From Bacteroidia bacterium (GTDB lineage: Bacteria > Bacteroidota > Bacteroidia > J057): DNA of 64,000 nucleotides. The notes below the pieces were generated by a model. It was given only the letters and a program-made list of their open reading frames with translations, did not search any database and was not told where the DNA came from. The stretch spans positions 182,642 through 246,641 of the forward strand of contig JAWPMV010000004.1 in NCBI GenBank assembly GCA_033391075.1. The letters run 5' to 3'. The first letter of the stretch is position 1, and every line of letters starts with the position of its first letter. Shown in pieces: positions 7,070 to 24,178 of this stretch. Made by a program: the position numbers and the translations under genes.

Positions 7070-8134
7070 ATGAAATTATTTTCTATCATCATATGCATGG
7101 TTTTTTCGTCCTATTTAGCCATAGGACAGCCCATGATCAATTCATCGGTCATTTTTGATTTGGGAGAATCTTCCGAAGTAGAAATCGTTCAGGATTTCTA
7201 CGCTCCGGGTGCTTCCGGCCCCAATGTAAGCTGGGACTTTAGCAATATTTCTGGCCCCTCTTTTAGATTTGACTGGCGAGCGATCAATCCAGATACCCTG
7301 CCCATTCAGATGCAGGACAGTTTCCCCAATTCGGATTTAAGCTTTTTAACTCCTATTGGCGATACCATAGGCAATTATCTCTTTTACCGGGAAAGCAATG
7401 ACAGCCTTTTCTTATTAGGAGCCGCTTTGACCCGTATTCCGACAGGGGATACGACCTGGTTTATGTTAAACGAAGACCCTCAATTGAGTCTGGCTTTTCC
7501 CATTAGTTATGAAGATGTGCAAACAGATTCTTTTGCAGGTACGAATTGGGTGCAGGTACAAGGAAATCTGTTTATGCAAAAACGACGAGGAAGCATTACC
7601 CATACTGCAGATGCCTATGGAGATATTACTACTCCTTTGGGGACTTTTAACAATGCTTTGCGCATCAAGACAGAAGAAAGGGTTTATGATACCCTTGTCG
7701 TTATGGGATTTCCTGCCTCTACAAGCATCCAGGAAATTACTCGCTATGCCTGGTACGTTGAGGGAGAGAAATACCTCATAATGCAAATGGATAGTATTTC
7801 GACTAGCCCTGGCACCTTGACAAAACAGGCACAATACCGAACGGAGGCCCTCGCGACTGCTATTGATCCTGAAATTCTCAGCAAGATGATTGACTTCCGG
7901 CTTTTTCCTAATCCAGCTAATAAGGCTATACGCTTAAGCTTTCAGTTGCCGCAGAGAGCTCCGGTTCAGATTGAAATTCTGAATATGATGGGGCAGAAAA
8001 TCTTGCTAAAAGAATATGCGGAAATAGCTTCCTTCGAAGATGAACTGAGTATAGATCAACTCCCTCAAGGAAGTTATCTCCTGAGAGTTTTTACCCCTTT
8101 GGGTAGTATTAGTAAACCCCTACTCATTAACTAA
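7070..8134 (+). CDS. secreted protein with T9SS C-terminal sorting domain
   Basis: Signal peptide. The C-terminal ~80 aa (FRLFPNPANKAIRLSFQL...GSYLLRVFT...SKPLLIN) matches the type-A Por/T9SS CTD pattern. Confidence 0.8.
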   Translation: MKLFSIIICMVFSSYLAIGQPMINSSVIFDLGESSEVEIVQDFYAPGASGPNVSWDFSNISGPSFRFDWRAINPDTLPIQMQDSFPNSDLSFLTPIGDTIGNYLFYRESNDSLFLLGAALTRIPTGDTTWFMLNEDPQLSLAFPISYEDVQTDSFAGTNWVQVQGNLFMQKRRGSITHTADAYGDITTPLGTFNNALRIKTEERVYDTLVVMGFPASTSIQEITRYAWYVEGEKYLIMQMDSISTSPGTLTKQAQYRTEALATAIDPEILSKMIDFRLFPNPANKAIRLSFQLPQRAPVQIEILNMMGQKILLKEYAEIASFEDELSIDQLPQGSYLLRVFTPLGSISKPLLIN

Positions 8135-8144
8135 AGCAGCCTCT

Positions 8145-9134
8145 ATGAAAGTCTATATTACTATAGTATACCTCCTCTTACTACTTTCTCCGGGCCTCCT
8201 TGAAGCCCAGGACATAGAGGGAAGCGAGGATCATCCCTTGCTGAGTCGATATCCGGGTTCATATATCAGCTACTTTGAAGAAGTAAAATACAGGGAGTAC
8301 AATTTTGCAAGCGGCCCTGTAACAGGCTATCGTCAAATCAAAGAATCAAGGGTAATAGCAGGATCTTTGAGTCGTCTCACTTATTTCATTGATAAATCTG
8401 TAGAAGAGTTGTCGATAGGAGAAGTCTATCAGGACTATTTGCAGGCTTTGACAAAGGCAAAGATCGATATCCTATCAAAAGGCCTCTTTCCTCAGAGAAA
8501 TGTCAAAAAGGAAGTCGGAGGCATGACGTGGATAGGTTTGGCTTTGGGGAATAATCCCTTCCCAGGAAATACCCGTGCCAATGATATGTTTCGAGGCACC
8601 AGTAGCAGCGGAGGCAGTTTTGCTATCGTAGGGAAAGTGCAAAGAGCGGAAGGAGCTACCTATCTGGTACTTTATGCGAAACGCTTCAGCAAAAATCGGG
8701 TAATCTGTCAGCTGGACGTGATTGAGGCAAAGGAAGCGGAAACAGGTCTGGTAACGGCAGATGCGGCCTATCTTTCCCGAGAGATAGAGCAGTATGGAAA
8801 AGTGGCTCTCTATGGAATCTATTTTGATTTTGATAAGGCCATTGTAAAAGAAGAATCAAAAGCGGCTTTGGATGAAATCGCCAAACTTCTCAGGTCAAAA
8901 TCTGAGCTTAATTTATATGTGGTAGGCCATACCGATATGAAAGGAGAGCTGGAATACAATCTGAGACTTTCTGAAAATCGGGCTCAGGCAGTGATAGAAA
9001 AGCTGGTGGAAGATTATGGCATAAAGCGCGCTCGATTAGAGGCGAAAGGGGTTGGACCTTTGGTTCCCATACTCTCAAATCAAGCCGAAGAAGGAAGAAG
9101 TCAAAACCGACGTGTGGAACTGGTTGAAAAATAA
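8145..9134 (+). CDS. OmpA-family protein (OmpA-like peptidoglycan-binding C-terminal domain)
   Basis: C-terminal IYFDFDKAIVKEES...VVGHTDMKGELEYNLRLSENRAQAV...NRRVELVEK. The N-terminal EGSEDHPLLSRYPGSYI resembles DUF4892-type N-domains (from memory). Confidence 0.85.
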   Translation: MKVYITIVYLLLLLSPGLLEAQDIEGSEDHPLLSRYPGSYISYFEEVKYREYNFASGPVTGYRQIKESRVIAGSLSRLTYFIDKSVEELSIGEVYQDYLQALTKAKIDILSKGLFPQRNVKKEVGGMTWIGLALGNNPFPGNTRANDMFRGTSSSGGSFAIVGKVQRAEGATYLVLYAKRFSKNRVICQLDVIEAKEAETGLVTADAAYLSREIEQYGKVALYGIYFDFDKAIVKEESKAALDEIAKLLRSKSELNLYVVGHTDMKGELEYNLRLSENRAQAVIEKLVEDYGIKRARLEAKGVGPLVPILSNQAEEGRSQNRRVELVEK

Positions 9135-9176: not shown

Positions 9177-9494
9177 ATGAAGACCCTTAAAAATCTAAGC
9201 ATCTTAGCTTTTTTACTTCTGGCATTTAGTGCAATTTCCTGTAATCAAACCAATAATCCGATTACTTGTAACTATGCGGCAGAACTACAGGATGAGGCAA
9301 CTGCACTCTCCAATGCAGCAGCAGCCTATGGAATGGATCAAAGTTCGGCAAATTGTGAAGCCTACCGCCAGGCCTTTATGGACTATCTGGACGAGGCTGA
9401 AAAACTGGACGATTGCGTGATCAGCTCTGAAAGAGCCGCTTATAGACAAGCCATTGATGATACACAGGCGAGTCTGGATGCCCTGACATGCTAA
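9177..9494 (+). CDS. small Cys-containing lipoprotein, unknown function
   Basis: Lipoprotein signal (LLLAFSAISCNQ), five Cys, helical Ala/Asp/Glu-rich body. Confidence 0.5.
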   Translation: MKTLKNLSILAFLLLAFSAISCNQTNNPITCNYAAELQDEATALSNAAAAYGMDQSSANCEAYRQAFMDYLDEAEKLDDCVISSERAAYRQAIDDTQASLDALTC

Positions 9495-9500
9495 TAAAAA

Positions 9501-9537
9501 GGAGGAAGCCTGTTTAAAATCGGGCTTCCTCTTTCTT
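9501..9537. terminator. hairpin at convergent gene ends (putative bidirectional terminator)
   Basis: GAGGAAGCC (9502-9510) / GGCTTCCTC (9523-9531) followed by TTTCTT. It overlaps the last codons of the minus-strand kinase gene. Confidence 0.5.
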
Positions 9538-12500
9538 AAAGATTTCTTTTTCCAGGCGAATACAAGTTCCCTGACTTTCTTGGCTCTCAATATGGAGTTG
9601 AGCCTCCATTTCTTTTGCTCTGCTTCGCATATTATTTAAGCCATTGACCCGTTTAAGATCCTTCTCATGGAAACCTTTTCCATTATCAATAAGTGAAAGG
9701 AGCAGCTTTTGGTCCTTCCTGGCTACCCGAATAGAAACTTTGCTACAATCTGCATACTTCAGGATATTATTCAGGGCCTCCTTACAAATGAGGAGCAAAT
9801 GCCTTTTGGTAGTTAAAGTCAAACTTTCCTCTTCATCTCCTTGCAGCTGATTATCAAAGTGAAATTCGATATCCGTGTGTTCGAAGAGGGAACTGGCAAA
9901 ATCTCTGATCCGATCCAGGGTAGCATGCAAACTATCGTGTCTGGGGTCAAGGGTCCAAATAAAATCCCGGATTCCAGAGCCTAATTCCTGCAGGTTTTCT
10001 TCCATTTTCTGAAGGTACTCCTGCAAGTCAGGATTATCCTGAGCACTTCTTTTACTTAAGCCCGTGTAGAGCGATAATTTTGTCAAATTGTTTCCCGCCT
10101 CATCATGAAAATCCTGAGAGGTTCTGGCTCTCAATTGTTCCCTTTCTTCAACTTTGATTCTTTCAATTCGGGCAAGCGTCCTCATTTCCTGACGGACTTC
10201 TTGGGTTCGGTAGGAAATAAAGAGGAAAATGGCTCCCAGAAAACAAAGTGCATAGAGGGCATAGGCCCACCAGCTTTTCCAGGGTGGGGGAGAAATATGG
10301 ATTTGTAGTTCCTTAGCCTCCTCGTTCCAAAGTCCATCATTGTTGGAGGCTTTAACTCGGAAAGTATAAGTTCCCGGAGCTAAATTGGGATAATCTGCAA
10401 AGCGCCTCTTTCCACTATATACCCAGTCTCTATCTACTCCGACCAACTGATAAGCGAATTGATTTTTTTCTGCTTTGGTGTATTCCAGGGCAGCAAATTC
10501 GAAGGAGAGGAAATCCTGATCATAGCTTAGCTTCACTTCATCTGTAACCCGGATTGATTGCGGCAAATGAAAAGCTGATTGATTCTCGGGATTGGGATCT
10601 ACCGGCACTTCTTGATTAAAAAGCTTTATTCCTGTTATCTGGAGTTTGGGTAATTGTTTATTGAGTTTCAGGCTATCGGGATGGAAATAAACCAGCCCAT
10701 GAGTCCCTCCAAAAAACATTTGTCCATTTTGGGCTTTAAAGTAGGCAAACTGATTAAACTCCAGGTTGGACAATCCATCTTCGATCCCAAAATTACGTGT
10801 CTTGAATTCACCCTCTTTCCAACTGGTTCGGGAGATTCCATTGTTTGTGCTTAGCCATAGATTTCCCTCTTCATCCTCGAGTATCCCATAAATCACATCA
10901 TTGGGTAGACCATCTTTTCGAAAAAAAGAACGGAAAACTCCTTCTTTTTCCATGAGGCATAAACCATTTGCCGTTCCTATCCACAATTGACCTGCCTGAT
11001 TTTCATGAAGGCTGAGGATCATGTCATTGCTAAGGCTACCGGGAAGGTTCCCTTTGGAATCATAGGTCGTGAAGGTTCCTTTTTCCGGATCCATTTTGCA
11101 CAATCCTCCCCCGGCAGTGCCAATCCAGAATCTGCCCATCCGATCTTCCAGTATACTGTAAACAAAGGGATGAGGTAATCCTGTACTATCTTCCGGATTA
11201 TGAAGATAATGCTTAAAAGTACCGCTTATCGGGTCGAATAAATTAAGGCCGCCGAGAGCCGTTCCCACCCAATACCTGCCCTTACTATCTTCATAAAATG
11301 TGTAGACCGTATTGGCACTCAAACTTTCGGGATCTTTATCATCGTGGGTATAGTGTTCAAAGCTTAATTTCCCAGATCCTTCTACTATGACTTTGGCGAA
11401 ACCTCCCCTGCGAGTGGTCAGCCACATCTGATCATTCCTGTCCCGGCAAACATTTAACAAATAATCTGTCCCTAGTTCCTGCTCCATATGGTAGCAAGTA
11501 AGGTCTCCGGGTATCTCATCCCAGCTATTAAAAATGCTCAATCCTCCTACCGTGGCTACCCATAGTTTTCCTTCTTTATCCTGATTGATTCCCAATATTT
11601 TATTATTGCAGAGCTGCCTCTGAGAACTTTCGAAGCTTATTTTCCCAAAAAAGGGACTATTTATAGAGGTTTTATTGATCCCGTAGCTTGTACCCAGTAA
11701 GAGATTCCCGGATTCATCGCCCATAATGGCATTGGTGCGATTATGAGATAAAGAGGATAGAACATTGGGATCATGACTACTGCGATTGAGGATGTGGGCT
11801 CCTTCAGTTTCCAATCGCTCAATATCTCCAAAATTCAATCCTTCTGCTGTGCCAATCCAAAAGGTTCCGTATTTATCCAGAAAGAGGGAGGTGATTGAGC
11901 TGCTTAGAAGTCCTTGTTCAGCAGCATTCTCTTTCTGCAAATACTTTTCAATCCTGAATTTCCCATTGCTGTCTTCGACAACTAATAACAATCCGATACT
12001 AGTCCCTATCCAATATCTCTGAGAGCTCTCAGCTAATATGCAGGATGTAAAGTAAATCTGGTCTTCTCTCAGAAATTCTGAAGTAAAGTTGAGGGCTTCC
12101 AGTTTTTCATTTTCCAGATCAAATACAGCCAATCCATTATTATGACCGAGTAAAAAACGTCCCTCTTTGAGGGGACTCATACTCAGGATGTTTCTCGCAA
12201 AAAAATTGCGGGAAGTGCCCGGTTCATGTGGCCAGCTCTTGATTTGATAGGTATGAGTATTCAGGATTGAAAGACCATAATCAGTTCCAATCAGGAGTAA
12301 AGAATCCTGATGGAGATATAAAGACCTGACACCATCATGGGCCAGACTTCCGTAGGGATTTCCAGCTTCAGGCAGGAAGTTGAGAAATTGCTCTGTTTTT
12401 CTGTCCCATTTACTCAATCCTCCGCCAAAGGTCCCGATCCAAAGATTCTTCTCTCTATCTTCTAGTACGGTCCAAATGTAATTGCTCTTCAGACTTTTGG

Positions 12501-12753
12501 GATTGCCTGGTTCATGGAAAAAGGAGGTGAATTCGTATCCGTCATATCGGTTCAGTCCATCTTGGGTGCCTATCCAAAGATAACCGTAAGAGTCTTTGAG
12601 AAAACAGCTTACGTTTCCCTGGGAAAGCCCCTCTTCTACGGAAATGTGTTCAAATTCGAGCTTTCTATTTTGGGAATAGATATTTTCAACATCTATGAAT
12701 AGGAGAAAGCATGCAAAAAGTAGTAAGTAAATTCTGGTGGGGGAAAGCGGCAT
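9514..12753 (-). CDS. sensor histidine kinase with periplasmic two-component-regulator propeller repeats + Y_Y_Y domain (HisKA_3/NarX class)
   Basis: Many repeats of the ...G.LWIGT..GL..(F/Y)D type and a Y_Y_Y-like segment (YAYQLVGVDRDWVY...PGTYTFRVKA). One TM helix (WWAYALYALCFLGAIFLFISY), an H-box (SQDFHDEAGNNLTKL) and a HATPase_c region (ALNNILKYA...IDNGKGF). Confidence 0.9.
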   Translation of the reverse strand: MPLSPTRIYLLLFACFLLFIDVENIYSQNRKLEFEHISVEEGLSQGNVSCFLKDSYGYLWIGTQDGLNRYDGYEFTSFFHEPGNPKSLKSNYIWTVLEDREKNLWIGTFGGGLSKWDRKTEQFLNFLPEAGNPYGSLAHDGVRSLYLHQDSLLLIGTDYGLSILNTHTYQIKSWPHEPGTSRNFFARNILSMSPLKEGRFLLGHNNGLAVFDLENEKLEALNFTSEFLREDQIYFTSCILAESSQRYWIGTSIGLLLVVEDSNGKFRIEKYLQKENAAEQGLLSSSITSLFLDKYGTFWIGTAEGLNFGDIERLETEGAHILNRSSHDPNVLSSLSHNRTNAIMGDESGNLLLGTSYGINKTSINSPFFGKISFESSQRQLCNNKILGINQDKEGKLWVATVGGLSIFNSWDEIPGDLTCYHMEQELGTDYLLNVCRDRNDQMWLTTRRGGFAKVIVEGSGKLSFEHYTHDDKDPESLSANTVYTFYEDSKGRYWVGTALGGLNLFDPISGTFKHYLHNPEDSTGLPHPFVYSILEDRMGRFWIGTAGGGLCKMDPEKGTFTTYDSKGNLPGSLSNDMILSLHENQAGQLWIGTANGLCLMEKEGVFRSFFRKDGLPNDVIYGILEDEEGNLWLSTNNGISRTSWKEGEFKTRNFGIEDGLSNLEFNQFAYFKAQNGQMFFGGTHGLVYFHPDSLKLNKQLPKLQITGIKLFNQEVPVDPNPENQSAFHLPQSIRVTDEVKLSYDQDFLSFEFAALEYTKAEKNQFAYQLVGVDRDWVYSGKRRFADYPNLAPGTYTFRVKASNNDGLWNEEAKELQIHISPPPWKSWWAYALYALCFLGAIFLFISYRTQEVRQEMRTLARIERIKVEEREQLRARTSQDFHDEAGNNLTKLSLYTGLSKRSAQDNPDLQEYLQKMEENLQELGSGIRDFIWTLDPRHDSLHATLDRIRDFASSLFEHTDIEFHFDNQLQGDEEESLTLTTKRHLLLICKEALNNILKYADCSKVSIRVARKDQKLLLSLIDNGKGFHEKDLKRVNGLNNMRSRAKEMEAQLHIESQESQGTCIRLEKEIFKKEEARF

Positions 12754-12842: not shown

Positions 12843-12980
12843 TTACCAATTCAAGTACCTAAACAAGCCCGCTTCAAATCCAAAAAGACTAATTACCAGG
12901 TATAGTAAGGAGAAGTACCAAATACCCATCAGGACATTTGCCCATTTTGTTCCGATTTTTTCTAAAAGGTAAGTGTACAT
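12843..12980 (-). CDS. unannotated 45-aa single-TM ORF, candidate DltX-like acyl-shuttle peptide
   Basis: Hand translation gives MYTYLLEKIGTKWANVLMGIWYFSLLYLVISLFGFEAGLFRYLNW*. The ATG (12978-12980) lies 4 nt after the MBOAT stop (12985-12987), same strand. One hydrophobic helix and a short C-terminal tail with Tyr. It is below the 60-aa cutoff of the ORF track. Confidence 0.45.
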   Translation of the reverse strand: MYTYLLEKIGTKWANVLMGIWYFSLLYLVISLFGFEAGLFRYLNW

Positions 12981-12984
12981 AGCC

Positions 12985-14118
12985 TTAGTTTATGAAGAAT
13001 AGAATTTTATAGGTTTGCCAGGAAGCCGCCATATCCACTTCATTGGTCAGGATAAAACTGAGCATGACGAAATGCAGGGTAATTCCTATTCCCAGGATTT
13101 TTTGTACAAGAGGAATCTTTGCGATCGCCTCCTGCATGGGCGTATTATTGTAGCGATGCCAGAGGTTGATGGCTATAGCATGCATAATTCCCCAGATCAA
13201 ATAGCGCAAGGATATTTCATGCCATCCTGCCAATACAAGCATAGACATAATGATGCTGATACGGGAATTTCTCGTCATACCGAGGAAGGGATAGAAAACA
13301 TAATCCCGACACCAATCTGAAAGAGAAATATGCCAGCGATTCCAGAAATCAGCAATATTTGTGGCTTTGAAAGGAGAATTGAAGTTCTCCATGACTTTAA
13401 AACCAAAGAGTAAAGACAAACCTATCGCTATATCTGAGTAGCCTGCAAACTGTACATAGGCATTGGCAGCGAATCGAAACATCTTCAGATAGGTCGCTAT
13501 CCAAAGATGACTGTCTTCCAGTCCCAGGGCAAAATTATTGAGTTTATAACTGAACAGGTAATTGCCAAGCACAACTATTTTTACAAAGCCATAAAGAATT
13601 CTTTCCAATCCCTGAGAAAACAGCAAATTATCCCATCGCCTTCTTTTTATATCTCTTAAGAAGGGTTGAAAGCGATTGATAGGGCCGATAAGGATGGTTG
13701 GAAGAAAGAACAGATAGCACATATATTCCCATAGGCTGTGCTTACTCAGACTTGTTTTCTTATACACCTCCAGAGCATAATGGATTTGGCGAAAGGAATA
13801 ATAGGAAAGCCCCAAAGGTAAAATGCCTGTTTCTCCCAATCCAAAAATGGCTGCATAATCCATCTTAAAAAAGAGAAAGATGCAACTCAATTGGATAACA
13901 ACTACCAAAGTCGCTGTGCTCAAAGAAGGAATATGTCGTAAAAGGTAGAAATTAAGAAGGCTGGTGCTCGCTAAAATCAGGAGGGAAGCTGGCGAATAAA
14001 TTCCCAACAAAATAGCAGTTGCCAGGATGAGGGGTGCCAGCTGCCATTTCTCTGGCAACAACCAGGCAGGGCCCAGCAACACAAAACTTACTCCCAATAT
14101 GATCAGCAGTATCTCCAT
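12985..14118 (-). CDS. MBOAT-family membrane O-acyltransferase (DltB/AlgI-like)
   Basis: Multi-TM protein with FWNRWHISLSDWCRDYVFYP (MBOAT catalytic His motif) and LAGWHEIS (second conserved His). At 377 aa it is closer to DltB than to AlgI in size. An ATGA overlap links it to the upstream gene. Confidence 0.9.
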   Translation of the reverse strand: MEILLIILGVSFVLLGPAWLLPEKWQLAPLILATAILLGIYSPASLLILASTSLLNFYLLRHIPSLSTATLVVVIQLSCIFLFFKMDYAAIFGLGETGILPLGLSYYSFRQIHYALEVYKKTSLSKHSLWEYMCYLFFLPTILIGPINRFQPFLRDIKRRRWDNLLFSQGLERILYGFVKIVVLGNYLFSYKLNNFALGLEDSHLWIATYLKMFRFAANAYVQFAGYSDIAIGLSLLFGFKVMENFNSPFKATNIADFWNRWHISLSDWCRDYVFYPFLGMTRNSRISIIMSMLVLAGWHEISLRYLIWGIMHAIAINLWHRYNNTPMQEAIAKIPLVQKILGIGITLHFVMLSFILTNEVDMAASWQTYKILFFIN

Positions 14119-15053
14119 CAGTTCTTTCTTTCTGCTACAATTTTATCTATCAGCCATTCAGTATATATCTCTTGTCCCGCTGTGGTCAAATGGCTGTAAT
14201 CCCAGAAGTATTTATACCCTAGCGGAGATCCTGTATAAGGCCAATATTCTATCCCTAATTGTTCTTGGTATTGCTCCAGTAAAATGGCCTGTTCCTGCAT
14301 AAGTTTTGGAGGGTAGATTTGATGCATCAGGGCCGCTGGTTGAGGGACATCCACAAATACTATTTTGATCCCCTGATCTCTGAGCATTTGTAATTCTTCG
14401 TGGGCATAGCCTAGTTCCTCAAAAGATCTGCTAATTCGTTTCTGTGGAACATAGGAAAGTGTATCCAGGTGCTGGATGGAGGGTCCTGCTTTAGCAACAC
14501 AGTCCATTTTTTGCTTATACCCCAGCATGCCTAGCATTTCTTTAAAAAACCTTCGATTTAGCCAGGACCTCATTTCCAGTTGGCCTTTTAGGCTGTGAGC
14601 TTTAAGGGTACTATCCGCTTTATATTTGGCTCCTACGTTTTCCAGATTTACGACAGCCAATTCTGTTTGGATGCAAACCAAATCAGGGTTTAGCGCAGCT
14701 ATTTTGGGAAGAAGCTGATGAGTAGTTACCATTCTTTTAAAGGGCTCACCATTGCCATACATCTTACTCAAGAGGATGGGAGATTTTTTCAGCCTGTTTG
14801 AATAAGCATAAATTTCATCCGGACATTGAATCCCATACTTAGCCAGGGAAGAACCAACAAAAATCACTTTCAAATCTCTTTTTTTTGAACTTTGAAAGTC
14901 CTCCTTCATTTCCTCATACAGTCCATCAAATTCCAGTTTGTCTGTATTGGGAATATTATGGCAATACACATGGACGATGATCTGGAGCAGGAGAAATAAT
15001 CCTCCTACCCAGGCCCATACATATAAAGGAGTTGATTTTGCTCTCACACTCAT
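14118..15053 (-). CDS. membrane-anchored SGNH/DltD-like protein (candidate terminal acyltransferase)
   Basis: N-terminal TM anchor, a block-I-like IFVGSSLAKYG, and a C-terminal FWDYSHLTTAG (D-x-x-H as in SGNH/DltD/AlgX-type enzymes). It sits between the carrier-ligase and MBOAT genes with ATGA overlaps on both sides. Confidence 0.55.
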   Translation of the reverse strand: MSVRAKSTPLYVWAWVGGLFLLLQIIVHVYCHNIPNTDKLEFDGLYEEMKEDFQSSKKRDLKVIFVGSSLAKYGIQCPDEIYAYSNRLKKSPILLSKMYGNGEPFKRMVTTHQLLPKIAALNPDLVCIQTELAVVNLENVGAKYKADSTLKAHSLKGQLEMRSWLNRRFFKEMLGMLGYKQKMDCVAKAGPSIQHLDTLSYVPQKRISRSFEELGYAHEELQMLRDQGIKIVFVDVPQPAALMHQIYPPKLMQEQAILLEQYQEQLGIEYWPYTGSPLGYKYFWDYSHLTTAGQEIYTEWLIDKIVAERKN

Positions 15054-16912
15054 GCCAGTTTTTCCAGGAGAATGTTCTCGGTTGCTTTAAGACTATTCAT
15101 GATCATCATTTCAGCCGTAGAAAAACGGACCTTGAATTTCTTCTCCAGGGAGTTTACATATTTCAAATGTGCCAAAGAATCCCATCCTTCAAGCGTCATA
15201 GAGGTGTCTTGCAGACTGATTTCTGTTACAGAAATATTAAAAGCTTCTGCTGCAGAAGCTTTAATCGCCTCAACATATCCCTCCTGCTCAGCTGAATTCT
15301 GAGAAATACTCGATCCAGCCTTATGTTCTTCTATCAATTTCCTGACCTCATTCACCTGAATTTTACCGGAGAGGGTACGAGGAAGGCTTTTGAGGAAAAA
15401 GCTTTCTTTGGGAATCTGATTTGCTTCTAATAGAGGACGGAGGTAGCTGATCAAATCCATTTTTTCCAGCTTTTGCCCGGCCTTCAAAACGATGGCAGTA
15501 GCCAACATTTCTCCATGATGCTCATCCGGCAAAGCGAAACAGACACTTTCAAATACTGCCTCATGGCTATTGATCATTTCTGTTACCTGCTCAGGATAAA
15601 TGTTGATCCCTCCTGTATTGATGGTATTTTTCTTTCTTCCAGTAATGCTGAAGAAGCCTTCTTCATCTTTTGCTGCAATATCCCCGGTAAATAGCCAGCC
15701 GTCTTGTAAAACCTCAGCAGTTGCTTCCGGATTATTGAGATAACCAACAAATATATGATCGCCTTTTATCATGAGATTTCCCGACTCATTTACTGCCGCT
15801 TCTGTCCCATCTTCCGTCAGGATTTTCACTTCACAATCAACAGGAACTCCAACTGTTCCGATTTTCTTTGGATATCCGGCTGCTCCACAGTATAAAGAAC
15901 CTGCGACGGTTTCGGTCATGCCATATACATTGGCAATTTCAACCTTGAATTTATCCTGAAAGTCCTCCCAGAATTTCTTTTCCAGTTTGGCAGCCGTTGA
16001 AATAATCAGTTTGAAATCTTCCGTTTGAAAACTTTCCTCATAATTCTCTGAGTACTTGTCCATAAAAGATAAGATGGTCGGAACGGTCATAAAATGAGTG
16101 GCCCGGAGTTTATAAATCGCATCGAAGAGCTCTGTCATCCGAGACATATCAAAGCTGAAAGGTCTCAATAATGTTGCATGCGAAAAGAGGGTAAGTAAGG
16201 GGCCCTGTATAGATCCATCTACATGGTAGAGGGTAAGGATATTGAGCAGTCGACTGTTTTCATCAAAAGCATATACTTTCTTGAGTGTCTTCAGGTGGGC
16301 GAATAAATTCCCATGAGAAATCATCACTCCTTTGGGATCAGAGGTAGATCCGCTGGTGAAAAGGACAAAAGAAAGATCGGAAGGCTCAATTTTTTCTAAA
16401 GGTTCAACTAGACCTGAAATGCTATCCATAAGTGCGGGGAAGCTATGATTATCCACCGGCGCCTCTGTTTTTTTCTTCTTCAGGAGTTTCTTAAAAAGTT
16501 TGCCTTTCTTCTGGGCGGATTTTTTCACGGGCAGACTAAAAAAGGAAGGATTTTCTTCAATTTTCCTTTCTGCGAATAAAGCTTCATCCATAACGGCTCC
16601 ATTCGCTGCTGCCTGAAGGATGATTCCTTTTGCTCTTTGGGCAGGAACCCGAGGATCGATAAAAATGCTCACAATTCCATATCGAAGAAAAGCCAGGAAG
16701 AATAGACTCGCATAATATTCATCCTCTACGGAGAGGACAATCCGATCTCCTTTTTTCAATCCTCTTTGCTGGAAAAGCTGGTGAAGTTTATCTATGTCTG
16801 TGAGTAAGGTCTGATAGGTATATTTTTTACCGCCTATTTGTGCAAAGACTTTTTTGCTTAACTGAGGTCCTTGCAGGCTTTCAAATAGATCAGTGATATT
16901 GTTGTATGGCAT
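15050..16912 (-). CDS. ANL-family adenylating enzyme fused to a C-terminal acyl/peptidyl carrier domain (DltA-DltC-like fusion)
   Basis: AMP-binding motifs LFTSGSTSDPKG, VYGMTETVAG, WLFTGDIA, GRKKNTINTGGINIYPEQV and LSGKI. The C-terminal ~80 aa carries LEGWDSLAHL (phosphopantetheine-type Ser codon at 15176-15178). Start chosen at MPYNNITDLF (16912), because the track start at 17035 would overlap the upstream gene by 146 nt. Confidence 0.85.
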   Translation of the reverse strand: MPYNNITDLFESLQGPQLSKKVFAQIGGKKYTYQTLLTDIDKLHQLFQQRGLKKGDRIVLSVEDEYYASLFFLAFLRYGIVSIFIDPRVPAQRAKGIILQAAANGAVMDEALFAERKIEENPSFFSLPVKKSAQKKGKLFKKLLKKKKTEAPVDNHSFPALMDSISGLVEPLEKIEPSDLSFVLFTSGSTSDPKGVMISHGNLFAHLKTLKKVYAFDENSRLLNILTLYHVDGSIQGPLLTLFSHATLLRPFSFDMSRMTELFDAIYKLRATHFMTVPTILSFMDKYSENYEESFQTEDFKLIISTAAKLEKKFWEDFQDKFKVEIANVYGMTETVAGSLYCGAAGYPKKIGTVGVPVDCEVKILTEDGTEAAVNESGNLMIKGDHIFVGYLNNPEATAEVLQDGWLFTGDIAAKDEEGFFSITGRKKNTINTGGINIYPEQVTEMINSHEAVFESVCFALPDEHHGEMLATAIVLKAGQKLEKMDLISYLRPLLEANQIPKESFFLKSLPRTLSGKIQVNEVRKLIEEHKAGSSISQNSAEQEGYVEAIKASAAEAFNISVTEISLQDTSMTLEGWDSLAHLKYVNSLEKKFKVRFSTAEMMIMNSLKATENILLEKLA

Positions 16913-19799
16913 GTAATAATTCTTTTTCTGATAGTTTTCCGTTTTCTGAATAGGGGAGCTGTGGGAGGAAATAGATTCGACGGGGAAGCTTGCGCTCTCC
17001 CAATTGGGTCCGGAGATTCTGTTGCAATTCTGCACGAAAGGAAGCGGGGTCCATGTCAGGATTTCTCAGGACTATACAGGCTGCAATTTTCTCTGCATCT
17101 TCTTCCTCATACGCATAGCAAATGACGTCTTCAACTTGCTCCTGTGTGCCAATTGCATCCTGGATTTCTTTGAGATAAACGACTTCTCCGCTGGAGATTT
17201 TTACAATATTTCTGATCCGGCCCAGGAGTTGAATATTACCAGCTTCTGTATAGCGAGCCCGGTCATGGGTATAAAACCATCCGTCCCGGATTACTTCTGC
17301 TGTTTTCTCCGGCATAGCCAGATAGCCCTGCATAATATTCTCGCTGTAGATACGAAGTTCTCCTTCTTCTCCTTTAGCTACTGGCTTTCCTGATTCATCG
17401 ACGATTTGTGCTATACAATCAATGGGTTTTCCAATGCTATCGTTGAGTAGGTTTTCTTCCAAAGGATTTTGGGAAATGCAAATCCCGGTGGTTTCCGTTA
17501 AGCCATAATAGTTGAGAATATCTTTGTCAAAAGCTGATTTAAAATCCTTTCTCAGAGATTGACTCAAGGCATTTCCGGTACAAATCAGAGATCGAATGCT
17601 ATCCAGTTGACCTCTGATTTTTTCGGCATACTTGGCAAATTGATGAAGTAAGGCAGGATTGCTACTTAAGACTGTAGCTTTACTCTCTTCTACTGCCTCA
17701 GCGATTCCGAATAAATTACCCATCGTGTTTGACCCGGGAAGCACTACGCTTGCTCCTACATGTAAGGGTGCTATAACGGTATTTCGCAAACCACTCATAC
17801 TTTCCAGACCTCCAATCGCTAAAAGCCGATCTTCTTCTTCCCATTGAAAAGTCTCTGTGATCAGTCTGCCACTTCTGAAAAGATTTCCATGCGAAAGCTG
17901 AACACCTTTGGGCATACCGGTTGATCCCGAAGTGAATAAAATGACCGCTTTATCTTTAGACTGAACCTCTACTTCTGATAATTCTTCATCCTCAATTTCT
18001 TCCAGCCAATCTTCGAAGTACAAAGCATCTTCAGCCTGCTCTTCTTCATCAAAAAGAATGATTGAACTTTCCCCAAAAAATGATCCTTTCTCCTGGTAAA
18101 GCTTTTCAGTCAGGAAAACCCGTTTTGCATCTGTCAATTTCAGGATGTGTTCGATTGTTTCCTGAGGCAAATGCCCGCCAATCGGAGCAACAACAATCCC
18201 TAATTGCATACAAGCCCAGTATAGCATGACTGCTTCCGTATGAATATTGCCTGCAATAATGACATTATCGCCTTTTTTCAAACCAGAGGCATGCAAACCA
18301 AGCATGATCATTTCGACTACTTCTTCGCAGTCTTCATAGGTAAATTCACTTTCATCCTCCAGAGAGATGAGTGCATGTTTTTCCGGGAAGGCTTTGACAG
18401 CATGTTGCCACAAAGACTTTAGATTTTGCTGTGTTTCCGGAACCAAATACTCCTGAGACATCAGGTGGTATTGTAAACGGGTAGCTTCTCTGGAAACGGG
18501 CAATACCTGTAGCATCCCCAGCTTTTCAAGTTTTTCCAGCTCTGCATATAGCTCTTCCTTACTACAGCCGATGCGTTCCTGCATCTCTTTCACCGAATAA
18601 GCATGCGTGGCCAAATAGGTGATTTGAGTTGCAAGTAAGGAAAGCTCGAAATTATCCAGGGCTTTGATTCGCTCAATATAAATAGGATGTCTATCCAGCA
18701 AATAGCCTACTGATCCATTGAGATAGTCGTGGTCTACTTCTACTTTTTGGTGATGCAAGTCAATATTCAGAAGCAGATTGATGATGACAAAACAATCCTC
18801 TATCGAATCCAGGTCTTTCATAGAGAAAGCTGACAAAGAATCGCCTTCCCATGCTTTTGGTAGAACTGCTATCAAAGAATTATAATCGGTTTGATCCGGG
18901 GTCGATATCAAAGGGATTTCAGCTAGTGCATGGATTTCATTTGCTGCGAACATATAGGGTTCGGAGAAGACATATCCTTTCCAATTGCTTTCATCCGGAA
19001 AAAGGGAAAAGGCACGATCATAATCCATTCCATGCATCTGCTTGCAGCCTCTTTCAAACCAGGGCTCCGGCTCATTATTGGTGAGATGGACATGAGGGAA
19101 AATAATAGCGCCCTCATCCTTAACCACCCGCATCAATTCCTTTAATAGTAAGCCTTGATTAAAGCGATGGAAGGTATCCAAACCGACTGAGAATGCGATG
19201 CTATTATCAGCCAATGGCAAAGGCTCATCCAGATCGCAAAACATTACACGGATGTTATCTCTTTCCTGTAACCAGAAGTTGTAGCCTTTATAGCCCAGAA
19301 CGTCCTTATTCCCTTCCCAGGTGGTAAGAATTTCATTCTCCGGAAAGAGACCCGCTAATAGGGCAGTGATCCATCCCGAACGGTCCCAGAGATTAAGGAT
19401 AGTATCTCCTTTTTTTACAGTGGCTCTGAGTTTTTTAAAGAAAGGATACAAAGCTTTGGAAGCTTCATTGAAGGGTTGAAAGCAGGCGTACATATCATAA
19501 TTGGGACGCCGGGCTTTTTGTTGCAGAAATATTTCATACTGCAGTTGATTTCCCAGGAGCTTTTCCAGTTTTTGGAATTTATTTCCCAAAACCTGGCCGG
19601 GAAACATATCAGATTCATTAAAAAAATAGAGCTTGTCAATGATGGGAACAAAGTGCGGATGGCTCTTCCCTTGCAGGAAGCTGCGCTTTTTTCCATCAAT
19701 CGATTCCGATTGATGTGAATATAGGGCGTTCAACATACAGTCAATTCTAAAACGTTCAATGGCATGAGAAAAGAGCGGCAAGCAGCAAGGTATATCCAA
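16890..19799 (-). CDS. multidomain protein: methyltransferase-fold-like N-terminus + wHTH-like linker + ANL adenylation domain
   Basis: C-terminal ~500 aa has ILFTSGSTGMPKG, YYGLTETTG, WFYTHDRA (TGD changed to THD), GRIRNIVKISSGEVV and ENGKLSEKEL. N-terminal residues ~100-300 resemble a Rossmann methyltransferase (GDTILNLWDRSGW, DNSIAFSVGLDTFHRF, LMRVVKDEGAIIF) with a degenerate Gly-rich loop. The start is uncertain: TTG at 19799 or ATG at 19736. Confidence 0.8.
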   Translation of the reverse strand: MDIPCCLPLFSHAIERFRIDCMLNALYSHQSESIDGKKRSFLQGKSHPHFVPIIDKLYFFNESDMFPGQVLGNKFQKLEKLLGNQLQYEIFLQQKARRPNYDMYACFQPFNEASKALYPFFKKLRATVKKGDTILNLWDRSGWITALLAGLFPENEILTTWEGNKDVLGYKGYNFWLQERDNIRVMFCDLDEPLPLADNSIAFSVGLDTFHRFNQGLLLKELMRVVKDEGAIIFPHVHLTNNEPEPWFERGCKQMHGMDYDRAFSLFPDESNWKGYVFSEPYMFAANEIHALAEIPLISTPDQTDYNSLIAVLPKAWEGDSLSAFSMKDLDSIEDCFVIINLLLNIDLHHQKVEVDHDYLNGSVGYLLDRHPIYIERIKALDNFELSLLATQITYLATHAYSVKEMQERIGCSKEELYAELEKLEKLGMLQVLPVSREATRLQYHLMSQEYLVPETQQNLKSLWQHAVKAFPEKHALISLEDESEFTYEDCEEVVEMIMLGLHASGLKKGDNVIIAGNIHTEAVMLYWACMQLGIVVAPIGGHLPQETIEHILKLTDAKRVFLTEKLYQEKGSFFGESSIILFDEEEQAEDALYFEDWLEEIEDEELSEVEVQSKDKAVILFTSGSTGMPKGVQLSHGNLFRSGRLITETFQWEEEDRLLAIGGLESMSGLRNTVIAPLHVGASVVLPGSNTMGNLFGIAEAVEESKATVLSSNPALLHQFAKYAEKIRGQLDSIRSLICTGNALSQSLRKDFKSAFDKDILNYYGLTETTGICISQNPLEENLLNDSIGKPIDCIAQIVDESGKPVAKGEEGELRIYSENIMQGYLAMPEKTAEVIRDGWFYTHDRARYTEAGNIQLLGRIRNIVKISSGEVVYLKEIQDAIGTQEQVEDVICYAYEEEDAEKIAACIVLRNPDMDPASFRAELQQNLRTQLGERKLPRRIYFLPQLPYSENGKLSEKELLHAIQQYH

Positions 19800-19927: not shown

Positions 19928-20605
19928 TTAATTTGTAGGCTTGGCCCAGTAAACACGGGTTTCAAAAGTCCCTCCGGGAATTACCCGATCCAATTTCAGC
20001 CAGCTTTGTGCCTCAAAAACTTCCTTATGGACGGGCATATAGTAGATGATCTGAATAGCCCGTGGATTTCTTTGAAGAGAGTCTTCAATATTTCCCAAAA
20101 CCGTATTCAAAACTTTGCCGGGAAAAGGATGAAAGAGGTAAAAGTGAGAGAAACGATCTATGTCATGAAAATCTCGGGCATCAGACTCATATATTGAGAG
20201 ATGTTGGCTTTCCAGAAGAAAGAAATTCTTTTTAGCAATACTTACGAGAAAGGGTGAAACTTCAACTCCCGCAACTTCCTCGAACCCAAATTCATCCAGA
20301 ATAAGCATGGCTGCCCCTTTGCCCGATCCATAATCAAGAATACGATCACTCGGTTTAATCTTTAGTTGAGTAAAGGTATTCCTCAAGTCCTTTCGCTCGC
20401 TAGGTGCATAATAGATTTCTTCTCCGAATTCCTCCAGGCCCAGGGTCTTATTGTCTACAGAAGGTGTAATATCGAGGCCCGCAAATTTCTCCCGAAGAAT
20501 CCTGAGATTCCTGCTGATTTTTGCAAGTAGATTTTGGGAACTATAATGGTCCAGGGCCTTATTCATACCATTTCTTGAATACTCAATCAATGAAAAAAAA
20601 TCCAA
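19928..20605 (-). CDS. class I SAM-dependent methyltransferase
   Basis: Motif I ILDYGSGKGAAMLIL followed by an acidic post-I segment (GVEVS). Compact 225-aa Rossmann-type layout. Confidence 0.8.
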   Translation of the reverse strand: MDFFSLIEYSRNGMNKALDHYSSQNLLAKISRNLRILREKFAGLDITPSVDNKTLGLEEFGEEIYYAPSERKDLRNTFTQLKIKPSDRILDYGSGKGAAMLILDEFGFEEVAGVEVSPFLVSIAKKNFFLLESQHLSIYESDARDFHDIDRFSHFYLFHPFPGKVLNTVLGNIEDSLQRNPRAIQIIYYMPVHKEVFEAQSWLKLDRVIPGGTFETRVYWAKPTN

Positions 20606-20822: not shown

Positions 20823-21539
20823 CTAGGCCTGAGCTTTTAAATACTCTATGACTGCTTTTTTATAACTCGCACCTATCGGGATTTCTATATCTCCAATCTC
20901 TATATCATGATGAGTAAAGGCTGAAATCATCGAACTGTTTACGATGTAGGAGCGATGAATACGAATGAAGGCCTCCGGTAAGAGTTTTTCATAGCGACTG
21001 ATGGTGTCCTTGGAAATGATGTTTTTGCCGGTTGTGTGTATACGCACATAATCCTTGATACTTTCGATATAAAGAATTTGATCCAGATAAACTTTTACAT
21101 GCTTTTTATCGGCATACACATAAATAGATCCACGTGGTTTTTCCAGTCCTTCGCTGCTTTCTTTTACTTCCTCTTTCTGATTTAATTTCAGGTATTTATT
21201 GACAGACTTAAAGAAACGTCCGAAAGAGATGGGTTTCAATAAATAATCCAGGACTTCAATCTCATAACCTTCAATGGCATATTCTCTGAATGCAGTTGTA
21301 AGGATTACCTGAGGAGGATTAGAAAGAGAGCGAATAAATTCAATCCCATTCATTTGAGGCATTTCCACATCCAGAAAAACAAGGTCAACCGCTTCTCGGT
21401 TCAGGACTTCAAATGCTTTCATACTATCCTGACAACTTGCCACAAGATGAAGTTGAGGGATCTGTTTTACATAATCCTCGATCACCTCAGCTGCCAAAGG
21501 TTCATCATCTACAATCAGGCATTTTATGGGGCTCTTCAT
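20823..21539 (-). CDS. LytTR-family response regulator
   Basis: REC domain (CLIVDDEPLA..., DLVFLDVEMPQMNGI) plus a LytTR DNA-binding domain (IESIKDYVRIHT..., FIRIHRSYIVN). Confidence 0.9.
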   Translation of the reverse strand: MKSPIKCLIVDDEPLAAEVIEDYVKQIPQLHLVASCQDSMKAFEVLNREAVDLVFLDVEMPQMNGIEFIRSLSNPPQVILTTAFREYAIEGYEIEVLDYLLKPISFGRFFKSVNKYLKLNQKEEVKESSEGLEKPRGSIYVYADKKHVKVYLDQILYIESIKDYVRIHTTGKNIISKDTISRYEKLLPEAFIRIHRSYIVNSSMISAFTHHDIEIGDIEIPIGASYKKAVIEYLKAQA

Positions 21540-21548
21540 ATCTCGTGT

Positions 21549-22631
21549 TTAAAGGTCTATATGTAGGATTACGCTATAGGAATCTTTCTGGTCTTCGATG
21601 ATCATCCTATGCCGTTCCGGATATTGCAAACTCAGCTGCCGTTTCAAGTTTTTTATACCAATTCCTTTACCTCCTGAGTCTCTGGAAGAGAGAATTTTTG
21701 ATTTGGAATTGAAAACCCGGAAAGAAAGCAGCTTATCAGTAAGCGTCAGATTTATCCGGATTAAAGGATCACCATCTTTGGTAGTCATCACATATTTGAA
21801 AGCGTTTTCTACAAGACTGATCAAAAGGAGGGGAGCAATTTGCACTTCGGTATCCTCTATCTTCTGGTCCAGTAAGATCATGAGGCTATCCTTATACCGC
21901 AAACTCTGAAGATCTGCATAACTCTCGATCAACTCCCATTCTTTTATAATAGGTACCCTTGGCTGATTGCATTCATAGATGGTATAGTCGAGGATCTCCG
22001 ACAACTTCATAACCATATCCGCCGTTTGCTCTGATCCACTTTTCGCTAATGCATAAATATTGTTGAGGGTATTGAAAAGGAAGTGGGGATTCATTTGTGC
22101 CTTGAGGAAGTTGAGTTCTGCCATGCTTTTTTCACGCTCAAGGCTGATGAGTTTATTCTCCTGCTGAAATCTTTCTTTCATCATCTTCAGTAGAAAGAGA
22201 AGTACGGCTGGCAAATAAACAGATACCATATATACCTTGATCAGATAGACAGCGTCTGTGATCACTTCCCAGACCGATTCCTCATAACTTTCAAAATTGA
22301 TGAGGGGTTCAGCGATATGGATAATGGAAAGTCGGGCCAATGCAGAGAGTCCATAGGCGATCAATGCCAGACTGACAAAAAATAGCAACCAGCGACCCTT
22401 ATACAATAGTTTCGGAATGAGATAATAGATCAAGGAATAGGCAGCCAGCATCTGAACCGGCAGAATACTAAGCATATTGATCAGATTATCTTTAAAGCTA
22501 CTTCCTAACAGGCTGCCATGATATGCCAGTAAAAGGATTACAAGAACCCAAAAACCCAGATGATAGATAAACCTGGGGATGGAATCAATCCTACTGATAT
22601 TGGAGTTATGAAGTGATAGCGAGTAAGCCAT
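21549..22631 (-). CDS. LytS/YehU-like sensor histidine kinase
   Basis: Multi-TM N-terminus, a His_kinase motif (AQMNPHFLFNTLNNIYAL) and a C-terminal ATPase-like region. It is adjacent to its LytTR response regulator. Confidence 0.85.
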   Translation of the reverse strand: MAYSLSLHNSNISRIDSIPRFIYHLGFWVLVILLLAYHGSLLGSSFKDNLINMLSILPVQMLAAYSLIYYLIPKLLYKGRWLLFFVSLALIAYGLSALARLSIIHIAEPLINFESYEESVWEVITDAVYLIKVYMVSVYLPAVLLFLLKMMKERFQQENKLISLEREKSMAELNFLKAQMNPHFLFNTLNNIYALAKSGSEQTADMVMKLSEILDYTIYECNQPRVPIIKEWELIESYADLQSLRYKDSLMILLDQKIEDTEVQIAPLLLISLVENAFKYVMTTKDGDPLIRINLTLTDKLLSFRVFNSKSKILSSRDSGGKGIGIKNLKRQLSLQYPERHRMIIEDQKDSYSVILHIDL

Positions 22632-22846: not shown

Positions 22847-24178
22847 ATGAAAAATCAGGTCATCTTTCTACTGCTGGGCATCTTCTGTAATGCTCTCCTT
22901 GCTCAAAACAATTGTGGCAAACTCCTCAAAGCGGTAGAAGAAAATAATATCTCCGCCGTCCGCAGCCTGCTGAATAGTGCAGATGTAGATTGTGTGTATG
23001 AGAAAAGTAATCCTCGTACAGCTCTGGTCATGGCAGCCCGGGAAGGACATAAAGAAATAGTCGAACTCCTTATTAGCAAAGGAGCAAAGGTGAGCTTTCA
23101 TCACAAACATGATGAAACGCCTTTGATGGCAGCATCCGGAAGTGGAATGGGGGCGATGGTTGATCTTATGATCAAAAAAGGAGCAGATGTAAATGAAGAG
23201 GAGAGAGGAGACGGAACAGCTCTGATCCTCGCTGCTCGACACGGCCACCTATCTATCGTCAAAAAACTTCTAAACCTGGGAGCAAAAATCAATGTCCTTA
23301 GCACAGGAGATGGGAGCGCACTCATCAATGCAGTCGCCGGAGGACATCCCCAGGTAGTCAAATACCTGCTCGAAAATGGAGCCAATCCCAATCTCGGAAA
23401 TATCGCAGATGGTTATCCGCTGGAGATTGCGCTCAATAAAGGAGATGATGAGATGATTCGCTTGCTGACGGCTAAAGGAGGTAGCAATAAAGGAGAATAT
23501 GATCGTTACGATGACGATGACGAGTATGATGATGAGGATGACGAAGATGATTATGAATATGAGGATGACGAACAAGACGAAGAAGGATTGTTGAATGCCT
23601 CATCACAAGATCAGTTGGAATGGGTGAAAAAGATGGTAGAAGGGGGTGCGGATGTGAATAAAAAGTATTACGGAGACGGCACACCTTTGATTATAGCTGT
23701 GAGAATTGGAAATATGGAGGTCGTGAAATACCTGGTCGAACAGGGAGCAGATGTGGATTTGGATATTCGGGGAGACGGAAGTCCCCTGATCGTTGCAGCA
23801 GCTCGGGGAGATCAGGCCATCATTTCCTACCTCTTATCAAAGGGGGCAGATATAGATAAAGGAGTAAAAGGAGATGGAAATCCCCTCATTGCTGCGGTGG
23901 AATATGGACATGAAGATATAGTGGTATATCTCCTGGATAAAGGAGCCGATGTTAACTATGAAATAACCGGTGATGAAACGCCTCTGATCAGAGCTTGTGC
24001 AGAAGGGAATCTGGAATTGGTAAAGCTTCTGGTTGCCAGAGGGGCAGATGTAAACAAGTCTTCCCGAGAAGTCTACAACCTCAATTCTCGTTTATATACT
24101 CCTCTTAAAGTAGCACGCAAAGGAGGATACTCAGATATCGTAGCTTATTTACTAGACAAAGGCGCTAAAAATGATTAA
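22847..24178 (+). CDS. secreted ankyrin-repeat protein with internal poly-acidic linker
   Basis: Signal peptide. Two blocks of ankyrin repeats (G.TPL..A...GH..IV..LL..GADVN) are separated by EYDRYDDDDEYDDEDDEDDYEYEDDEQDEE. Confidence 0.9.
   Translation: MKNQVIFLLLGIFCNALLAQNNCGKLLKAVEENNISAVRSLLNSADVDCVYEKSNPRTALVMAAREGHKEIVELLISKGAKVSFHHKHDETPLMAASGSGMGAMVDLMIKKGADVNEEERGDGTALILAARHGHLSIVKKLLNLGAKINVLSTGDGSALINAVAGGHPQVVKYLLENGANPNLGNIADGYPLEIALNKGDDEMIRLLTAKGGSNKGEYDRYDDDDEYDDEDDEDDYEYEDDEQDEEGLLNASSQDQLEWVKKMVEGGADVNKKYYGDGTPLIIAVRIGNMEVVKYLVEQGADVDLDIRGDGSPLIVAAARGDQAIISYLLSKGADIDKGVKGDGNPLIAAVEYGHEDIVVYLLDKGADVNYEITGDETPLIRACAEGNLELVKLLVARGADVNKSSREVYNLNSRLYTPLKVARKGGYSDIVAYLLDKGAKND

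Follow-up and report, generated by a model that had tools for sequence, protein, structure and literature searches.

Acyl-tyrosine shuttles in MBOAT pathways

The acyl-tyrosine shuttle was discovered in 2023 and has been described in two forms, either as the Firmicute microprotein DltX or as a tail fused to the membrane-bound O-acyltransferase (MBOAT) itself, and the dra operon of Bordetella provides a Dlt-like operon of a Gram-negative bacterium. In the D-alanylation (Dlt) pathway, DltB takes D-Ala from DltC and places it on DltX, where the acceptor is an invariant Tyr within a C-terminal "acyl shuttle" motif, FXYXXF; DltX binds both DltB and DltD, hands the acyl group to the DltD serine and also scaffolds the DltB-DltX-DltD complex (PMC12148441; Journal of Biological Chemistry, 2025). 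In PatA, where the C-terminal motif is fused, the enzyme acetylates its own corresponding Tyr, and non-Dlt MBOAT/SGNH pathways are said to lack both a carrier protein and a microprotein like DltX (PMC12148441). The DltX of Bacillus thuringiensis is 48 residues long, ends in FIYNEF, lies with its N-terminus inside and has its invariant tyrosine at Tyr45, while the Gram-negative dlt operons of Dickeya and Pectobacterium encode as their first gene product a small protein that has the topology of DltX and no sequence similarity to it (PMC5541007). This article describes a 45-residue microprotein encoded directly behind a DltB-like MBOAT gene in a 64,000-nucleotide stretch of a Bacteroidia genome (contig JAWPMV010000004.1, positions 182,642 to 246,641; hereafter the window), and weighs the reading that it serves in trans as the acyl shuttle of an MBOAT-SGNH pathway that acylates the envelope and depends on a carrier protein. 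We assign this reading a probability of roughly 0.75.

A short gene behind the MBOAT gene

The microprotein gene and its two main features lie on the minus strand as follows.

12843..12980 (stop codon included), minus strand: gene for a 45-residue single-pass microprotein, candidate trans-acting acyl shuttle, recognized from its translation and from homologous open reading frames
12879..12935, minus strand: predicted transmembrane helix, residues 16-34, VLMGIWYFSLLYLVISLFG, with W21-Y22 and L25, placed by a hydropathy window
12846..12863, minus strand: C-terminal hexapeptide F40-R-Y42-L-N-W45, putative acyl-accepting motif, in which the Tyr42 codon TAC occupies 12855..12857

Translation of this interval yields MYTYLLEKIGTKWANVLMGIWYFSLLYLVISLFGFEAGLFRYLNW followed by TAA, a peptide and stop identical to those read by hand in a first-pass annotation of this DNA. 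The ATG at 12980 is separated from the MBOAT stop codon TAA (12987..12985) by the four bases GGCT, a spacing that the annotation had also read off correctly, and the two open reading frames (ORFs) lie in different frames. As that annotation described, the product has one hydrophobic stretch (residues 16-34, mean Kyte-Doolittle value 2.0) followed by a ten-residue tail that ends in FRYLNW. Its remark that this ending stands in a slightly different register from the DltX motif has to be corrected, because F-R-Y-L-N-W superimposes directly on F-x-Y-x-x-F, with W replacing the final F, and the register is thus unshifted. An ending of the form [FLIM]-x-Y-x-x-[FWYLI] occurs in only one of the 157 ATG-initiated ORFs of 35-70 residues in the six frames of the window, that one being the microprotein. 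No promoter or terminator was found around the ORF in a scan whose sigma-70 rules are poorly suited to Bacteroidota, and no Shine-Dalgarno evidence for it was found.

Conservation and coding status

For comparison, 80 genomic loci were fetched using an alignment of 31 MBOAT homologues; they come from Bacteroidota and, more distantly, from Proteobacteria, Nitrospirota/Nitrospinota, and Desulfobacterota. A first scan with a strict motif filter recovered a microprotein ORF in 63 of the 80 loci, at -37 to +57 nucleotides from the MBOAT stop and with a length of 45-61 residues (45-49 when counted from a conserved M-Y start), and a further 13 loci were added when L or I was permitted as the last residue. 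Two loci (L045 and L068) are not evaluable, their contigs stopping at the MBOAT stop codon. A counterpart of 44-49 residues is consequently present in 78 of 78 evaluable loci, two rearranged ones included, and in the other 76 it begins between -29 and +57 nucleotides from the MBOAT stop. In the first rearranged locus (L012), the ORF lies 1 kb downstream of the MBOAT gene and directly after the homologue of a 311-residue SGNH-type protein of the window (within the region 7127..8265 of that locus), and in the second (L015) it lies 2.2 kb downstream and directly before that homologue (region 9189..10291). That the microprotein gene flanks the SGNH-type gene in both fits a subunit serving both enzymes. 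The second locus also has about 2 kb of unrelated small ORFs inserted after its MBOAT gene.

The substitution pattern is that of a coding sequence. When 20 close pairs were pooled in a Nei-Gojobori comparison, the proportion of synonymous differences (pS) was 0.59 and that of non-synonymous differences (pN) 0.089, giving a pN/pS of 0.15, with most close pairs falling at 0.09-0.26. Between the window and its closest relative among the loci (L001) pN/pS is 0.09, with 19 synonymous and 7 non-synonymous differences and with 19 of the 26 at third codon positions. The microprotein is thus a real gene under purifying selection, always found with this MBOAT. Both of the tests that the first-pass annotation had proposed for the reading frame, conservation downstream of orthologous MBOAT genes and a coding-like pattern of substitution, therefore came out in its favor.

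Its expectation that annotation pipelines would miss the gene was likewise borne out. A protein database of 5.8 billion clusters holds only 18 detectable relatives, all of them unnamed or labeled "hypothetical", and a word-index protein search with the single ORF as query returned one relative. When 1.84 billion representative proteins were searched exhaustively with a profile, on the other hand, 276 clusters (at 50% identity) matched with E<=1e-3, and the best 150 of these 276 matches are nearly all 44-49 residues long, over a full range of 33-67 residues, with none fused to a larger protein. Since genome DNA and the exhaustive profile search each gave many members, the single word-index relative reflects poor gene calling and the index rather than rarity, and the 18 database members indicate that the gene is usually not called.

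Conserved residues and predicted topology

As the first-pass annotation anticipated, the tail is the most conserved part of the microprotein. In an alignment of 67 sequences Y42 is the only invariant column, while M1, Y2, Y22, L25, and F40 are at least 90% conserved and W21, Y22, and L25 form a conserved group inside the helix. In a larger set, the tyrosine is fourth from the C-terminus (position -4) in 79 of 79 sequences; at position -6, 70 of them have F and the rest L, M or I, while 63 have R or K at position -5 and 76 have G or A at position -8. The C-terminal residue varies more, being W in 49 sequences, Y in 10, L in 10, F in 7, and I in 3, which gives the family a tail consensus of [F/L/I/M]-x-Y-x-x-[W/Y/L/F/I]-stop. 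Among 161 database microproteins the motif stands at the extreme C-terminus in 157, and the remaining four keep F/I-x-Y. The mean net charge across the family is +2.1 for the N-terminal segment and +0.1 for the C-terminal tail, and on the positive-inside rule these values predict a topology with the N-terminus in and the C-terminus out.

The MBOAT and the SGNH-type protein

The two genes immediately upstream encode the enzymes between which the microprotein would act.

12985..14118, minus strand: DltB-like MBOAT acyltransferase of 377 residues (Pfam MBOAT, 1.8e-23)
14118..15053, minus strand: protein of 311 residues with an N-terminal membrane anchor and a GSS...D-x-x-H pattern of invariant residues, putative SGNH/DltD-like transferase receiving the acyl group

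Against the NCBIfam DltB model TIGR04091 the MBOAT gives a match of 7e-54 that spans positions 63-375 of the 380 in the profile, and its score falls below the equivalog cut-off of that model (183.5 bits versus 375). Its identity to Listeria DltB is 29% (E 4e-36), and its AlphaFold2 (AF2) model, with a predicted local distance difference test (pLDDT) score of 90.8, finds DltB (8jem, 6bug) as the best PDB matches in Foldseek (E 5e-14 to 3e-13; template modeling score 0.61-0.71). His263 and His300 are invariant in the alignment of 31 homologues. Homologues of this MBOAT number in the thousands and the closest 120 are almost all 373-378 residues long; the window protein, at 377 residues compared with 391-394 for true DltB, has no C-terminal shuttle extension. 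Its C-terminus, ...YKILFFIN, holds no shuttle motif and the related MBOATs also end without one. The same terminus (12985..13020, minus strand) does carry a semi-conserved family motif, [Y/F]-K-x-L-F-F, which is not a shuttle motif because Phe replaces Tyr in several homologues and which may be a docking site for the microprotein.

The family of the 311-residue protein has six invariant residues among 29 homologues (G67, S69, P237, D285, H288, and G293), which supply a G-S-S block I and a D-x-x-H block V as found in SGNH enzymes and in DltD, whose YGSSE and D..H stand at equivalent places. No Pfam family, DltD included, matches the window protein, and in a PDB profile search the best match of its family is a weak one to the GDSL lipase 7ddy (E 0.022), in which blocks I and V are aligned. 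Weak matches to DUF1574 occur in 3 of the 29 members and to Lipase_GDSL in 2, and hhalign against DltD aligns the DxxH region without reaching significance (P=0.04). The AF2 single-sequence model has a pLDDT of 41 and is unusable, with helix 8-32 as its only confident part.

The adenylating enzymes and the operon

The cassette is completed by two genes for adenylating enzymes, likewise on the minus strand.

15050..17035, minus strand: adenylating enzyme fused to a C-terminal carrier (PP-binding) domain, putative acyl donor, assigned by its domain matches
16890..19799, minus strand: protein of 969 residues with an N-terminal methyltransferase-like region and an adenylation domain, first gene of the cassette (AMP-binding 5e-69, Methyltransf_11 0.02)

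The carrier-fused enzyme matches the Pfam families AMP-binding (1.9e-59), AMP-binding_C (2.4e-08), and PP-binding (8.4e-04), and its carrier domain has a W-D-S-L phosphopantetheine site and aligns with DltC around the Ser. As called mechanically, the ORF starts from a GTG at 17035 and overlaps the upstream gene by 146 nucleotides; from the ATG at 16912 (MPYNNITDLF...) the overlap is 23 nucleotides, and this ATG is probably the true start because homologue alignments begin near residue 40-60. In the 969-residue protein the adenylation domain is complete and the N-terminal region of about 450 residues gives weak Methyltransf_11 and helix-turn-helix-like matches only. This protein has no carrier domain, and the operon thus holds two adenylating enzymes for one carrier. 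Its gene is kept upstream of that for the carrier-fused enzyme in most of the 80 loci and is absent from Chryseolinea-type loci. Both enzymes score higher against fatty-acyl/aryl-CoA ligase models than against DltA (NCBIfam), the identity of the carrier-fused enzyme to DltA being 24%. The A4-region L-Y-H-V-D-G-S combines a His typical of acyl-CoA ligases with an Asp that aligns to the amino-group-binding Asp of DltA, and is therefore ambiguous as a guide to the acyl substrate.

The five genes form a compact minus-strand operon of which the microprotein gene is the last, and the cassette recurs in most of the 80 loci. Cultivable bacteria that have the operon include Pedobacter gandavensis, Cytophaga aurantiaca DSM 3654, Spirosoma panaciterrae, Chryseolinea serpens, and Tenacibaculum xiamenense. 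The stop of the carrier-fused enzyme gene overlaps the start of the next gene (ATGA), the stop of the 311-residue protein gene overlaps the MBOAT start (TGATG), and the last junction is the 4-nucleotide gap before the microprotein. Candidates for the donor (the carrier) and for the receiver (the Ser/Asp/His ectoenzyme) are thereby encoded in the same translationally coupled operon as the microprotein.

Proposed pathway

The microprotein is predicted to sit in the inner membrane as a single-pass protein with a cytoplasmic N-terminus and its C-terminal tail outside. The domains present suggest a first step in which a carboxylic or amino acid is activated by one or both adenylating enzymes and becomes bound, as a thioester, to the phosphopantetheine arm of the fused carrier. 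If DltB/DltX and PatA are a guide, the MBOAT would then pass the acyl group through its membrane funnel to the hydroxyl of Tyr42, after which the tail may swing to the SGNH-type protein, where Ser69 (of GSS, acting with D285 and H288) would take the acyl group. The SGNH-type enzyme would finally esterify an envelope polymer or lipid. In this scheme we infer the covalent acyl-Tyr42 intermediate, the physical contacts and the direction of transfer. The shuttle first suggested in the early annotation is, as far as sequence analysis reaches, supported by the invariant Tyr42 and by the motif-less MBOAT.

Comparison with described shuttles

The resemblance to DltX (PF12459) is one of architecture. 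Both are single-pass microproteins of about 45-48 residues, oriented so that the basic N-terminus is inside and the short tail outside, both have an invariant Tyr fourth from the C-terminus within a Phi-x-Y-x-x-Phi hexapeptide, and both show an aromatic pair early in the helix and a Gly just after it. Each is encoded with a short, motif-less DltB-type MBOAT, a carrier protein and a membrane-anchored Ser/Asp/His transferase bearing GSS. The window family differs in that its last residue is W (or Y, L, F, I) rather than F, in that position -5 is usually R or K, and in that three fewer residues separate the helix from the motif. Its hosts, unlike those of DltX, are Gram-negative and lack teichoic acids, and the adenylating enzymes of the window are not DltA-like and the carrier is fused.

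The fused MBOAT shuttle, represented by PatA and, by inference, by AlgI and other MBOAT-SGNH pathways, has the same hexapeptide at its extreme C-terminus and the same proposed chemistry, with a His-catalyzed acyl transfer by the MBOAT to Tyr and then to an SGNH Ser. In that type, however, the motif lies within the MBOAT on two extra helices, the donor is acyl-CoA and there is no carrier protein, whereas the system described here has the motif on a separate ORF (in the window and in the 78 loci) and includes a carrier domain. The Gram-negative Dlt-like operons of Dickeya and Pectobacterium (PMC5541007), compared here by description only, resemble the present system in being carrier-dependent MBOAT systems whose small first-gene product has the topology of DltX; they differ in keeping DltA-, DltC-, and DltD-type proteins and the dltX-first order. 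The locus represents a third situation, in which a separate and unrelated-looking microprotein accompanies a DltB-like MBOAT and a fused carrier in Gram-negative bacteria of several phyla. A literature search for this cassette in Bacteroidota, or for DltX-like microproteins outside Dlt, found none.

In a side observation on DltX itself, three PLSDB records (NZ_CP093325.1, NZ_CP030101.1, and NZ_CP102590.1, "plasmids" of 5.5, 2.9, and 1.4 Mb) carry chromosomal dlt operons in which dltX is unannotated, another case of this small-gene class being skipped. These records look like chromosomes or chromids filed as plasmids.

Weighing of the alternatives

Several observations weigh against the shuttle reading, most of them concerning the relationship to DltX. 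The microprotein ORF of the window matched no model in Pfam or NCBIfam at E<=1, and none of the 67 family members matched PF12459 at E<=10, while the B. thuringiensis DltX, used as a positive control, did so at 2e-21. Against five true DltX sequences assembled for profile comparison from plasmid-collection records, hhalign gave a non-significant probability of 4.7% (P=0.0086), with WY/YY and FxY in register, and a comparison with one true DltX yielded no reliable signal either. A DltX hidden Markov model (HMM) scored at least 5 bits for 13 of the 67 members compared with 5.6% of segment-shuffled controls, a similarity barely above the controls, and the reverse search, with the family HMM against true DltX, did not rise above the segment-shuffled null. 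A search of the PDB for a DltX chain, with the family profile or with true DltX, found none, the weak matches being designed or unrelated membrane helices. Further points on the same side are that the last motif residue is often W, L or I instead of F, that dltX is the first gene of dltXABCD whereas the window gene is last, after the MBOAT gene (or, elsewhere, beside the SGNH-type gene), and that the SGNH assignment of the 311-residue protein derives only from motifs and weak matches. Since HMM scans, hhalign, and cross-searches gave no reliable signal, homology to DltX is not claimed, and by these searches the microprotein is outside the DltX sequence family as currently defined. The label "DltX-type" given in the first-pass annotation accordingly stands for function and architecture and falls for family membership, the comparison with a DltX HMM that it recommended having come out negative.

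These same results bear on the possibility that the microprotein is a diverged DltX orthologue and the operon a true Dlt pathway moved into Gram-negative bacteria, a transfer reported in Dickeya, Pectobacterium, and Bordetella, so that there would be only an annotation gap to explain. In its favor, DltB provides the best family and fold matches of the MBOAT, size, topology and motif are held in common, the hhalign alignment is co-linear, and small first-gene products that match in topology, though not in sequence, are on record for Gram-negative dlt operons (PMC5541007). The proposal is nonetheless quite unlikely, as the DltB equivalog cut-off is missed widely (183 versus 375 bits), the adenylating enzymes fit fatty-acyl/aryl-CoA ligase models better than DltA, in place of a free DltC there is a fused carrier, and an extra adenylation and methyltransferase-like protein is present; there is moreover no DltD Pfam match, the gene order is unlike dltXABCD, and the DltX HMM finds no match. 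It is also unlikely that the microprotein is a genuine but non-catalytic scaffold, assembly or stability subunit joining the MBOAT and the SGNH-type enzyme, with the Tyr making a structural or substrate-binding contact. Conservation and linkage prove only that the protein matters to the system, the helix also holds conserved residues (W21, Y22, and L25), and DltX itself has a scaffolding role (PMC12148441). Against this, the one residue that never varies coincides with the nucleophile of the motif as published, and it stands equally far from the C-terminus; the MBOAT offers no other motif, and the tail chemistry has been demonstrated twice, in DltX and in PatA (PMC12148441).

Two explanations that would do away with the gene altogether carry very little weight. 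One holds that the ORF is the broken-off C-terminal helix of a once longer, fused MBOAT, separated by a frameshift, a sequencing error or pseudogene decay. MBOATs of other pathways do bear the same motif on extra C-terminal helices (PMC12148441) and the ORF begins just 4 nucleotides past the MBOAT stop in a different frame; the split is, however, present in all 78 loci across the four groups of phyla sampled, with a spacing that varies from -29 to +57 nucleotides, with an own ATG and conserved M-Y N-terminus in each, and with intervening genes in two. The MBOAT homologues are, in addition, uniformly about 375 residues long, and the best 150 database matches to the microprotein, at 33-67 residues, include no fusion. 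As an artefact this explanation is refuted and highly improbable, while an ancient fission or fusion is possible as the evolutionary origin of the gene. The other holds that the ORF arose by chance in an intergenic spacer, for which its short length, the lack of a database family, and the lack of Shine-Dalgarno or promoter evidence could be cited. A pooled pN/pS of 0.15, third-position changes at 19 of the 26 differences from L001, matches in 276 representative clusters, and a motif found in 1 of 157 comparable window ORFs speak against it, and on this conservation pattern it is refuted, leaving it a negligible chance.

A widespread family

If the microprotein is a shuttle, the novelty lies not in the mechanism but in a widespread, unannotated family that takes the part of the shuttle in a system outside the Firmicutes. 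The family comprises at least 276 clusters at 50% identity and spans Bacteroidota, Proteobacteria, Nitrospirota/Nitrospinota, and Desulfobacterota. We place at even odds the broader proposal that the window gene is the first representative of a family of trans-acting shuttle microproteins that is widespread and has almost entirely escaped annotation, marking a second, Dlt-independent class of carrier-dependent MBOAT-SGNH systems. Under this proposal, two adenylating enzymes (one a methyltransferase-like fusion) would activate an acyl group that is not D-alanine, and the group would be placed onto a Gram-negative envelope molecule.

Should the shuttle role be confirmed, annotators would have a simple signature in a 45-residue ORF beside an MBOAT gene of about 375 codons, with an M-Y start and a G-x-F-[RK]-Y-x-x-Phi-stop end. 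The gene would also mark an uncharacterized envelope modification in Bacteroidota such as Pedobacter, Cytophaga, Spirosoma, Hymenobacter, Tenacibaculum, and Flavobacterium, one that may alter surface charge, antimicrobial-peptide resistance or polysaccharide properties. The family would further provide a natural comparison for what the hexapeptide needs, with the Tyr and the hydrophobic residue at -6 essential and the last residue free.

Neighboring genes

Downstream of the cassette, on the same strand and 90 nucleotides beyond the microprotein stop, lies a gene for a sensor kinase of 1079 residues (9514..12753, minus strand) that contains eight Reg_prop repeats together with Y_Y_Y, HisKA_3, and HATPase_c domains. 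No homologue of this kinase was found in the 80 related loci, and it is therefore probably outside the cassette. Just upstream of the cassette, a class-I methyltransferase-like protein of 225 residues (19928..20605, minus strand) is shared with the closest relative, L001, only. Beyond it are a LytTR response regulator and His_kinase pair (20823..22631, minus strand) and, on the opposite strand, a protein of 443 residues composed almost wholly of ankyrin repeats (22847..24178) followed by a beta-lactamase-family protein (24171..25601).

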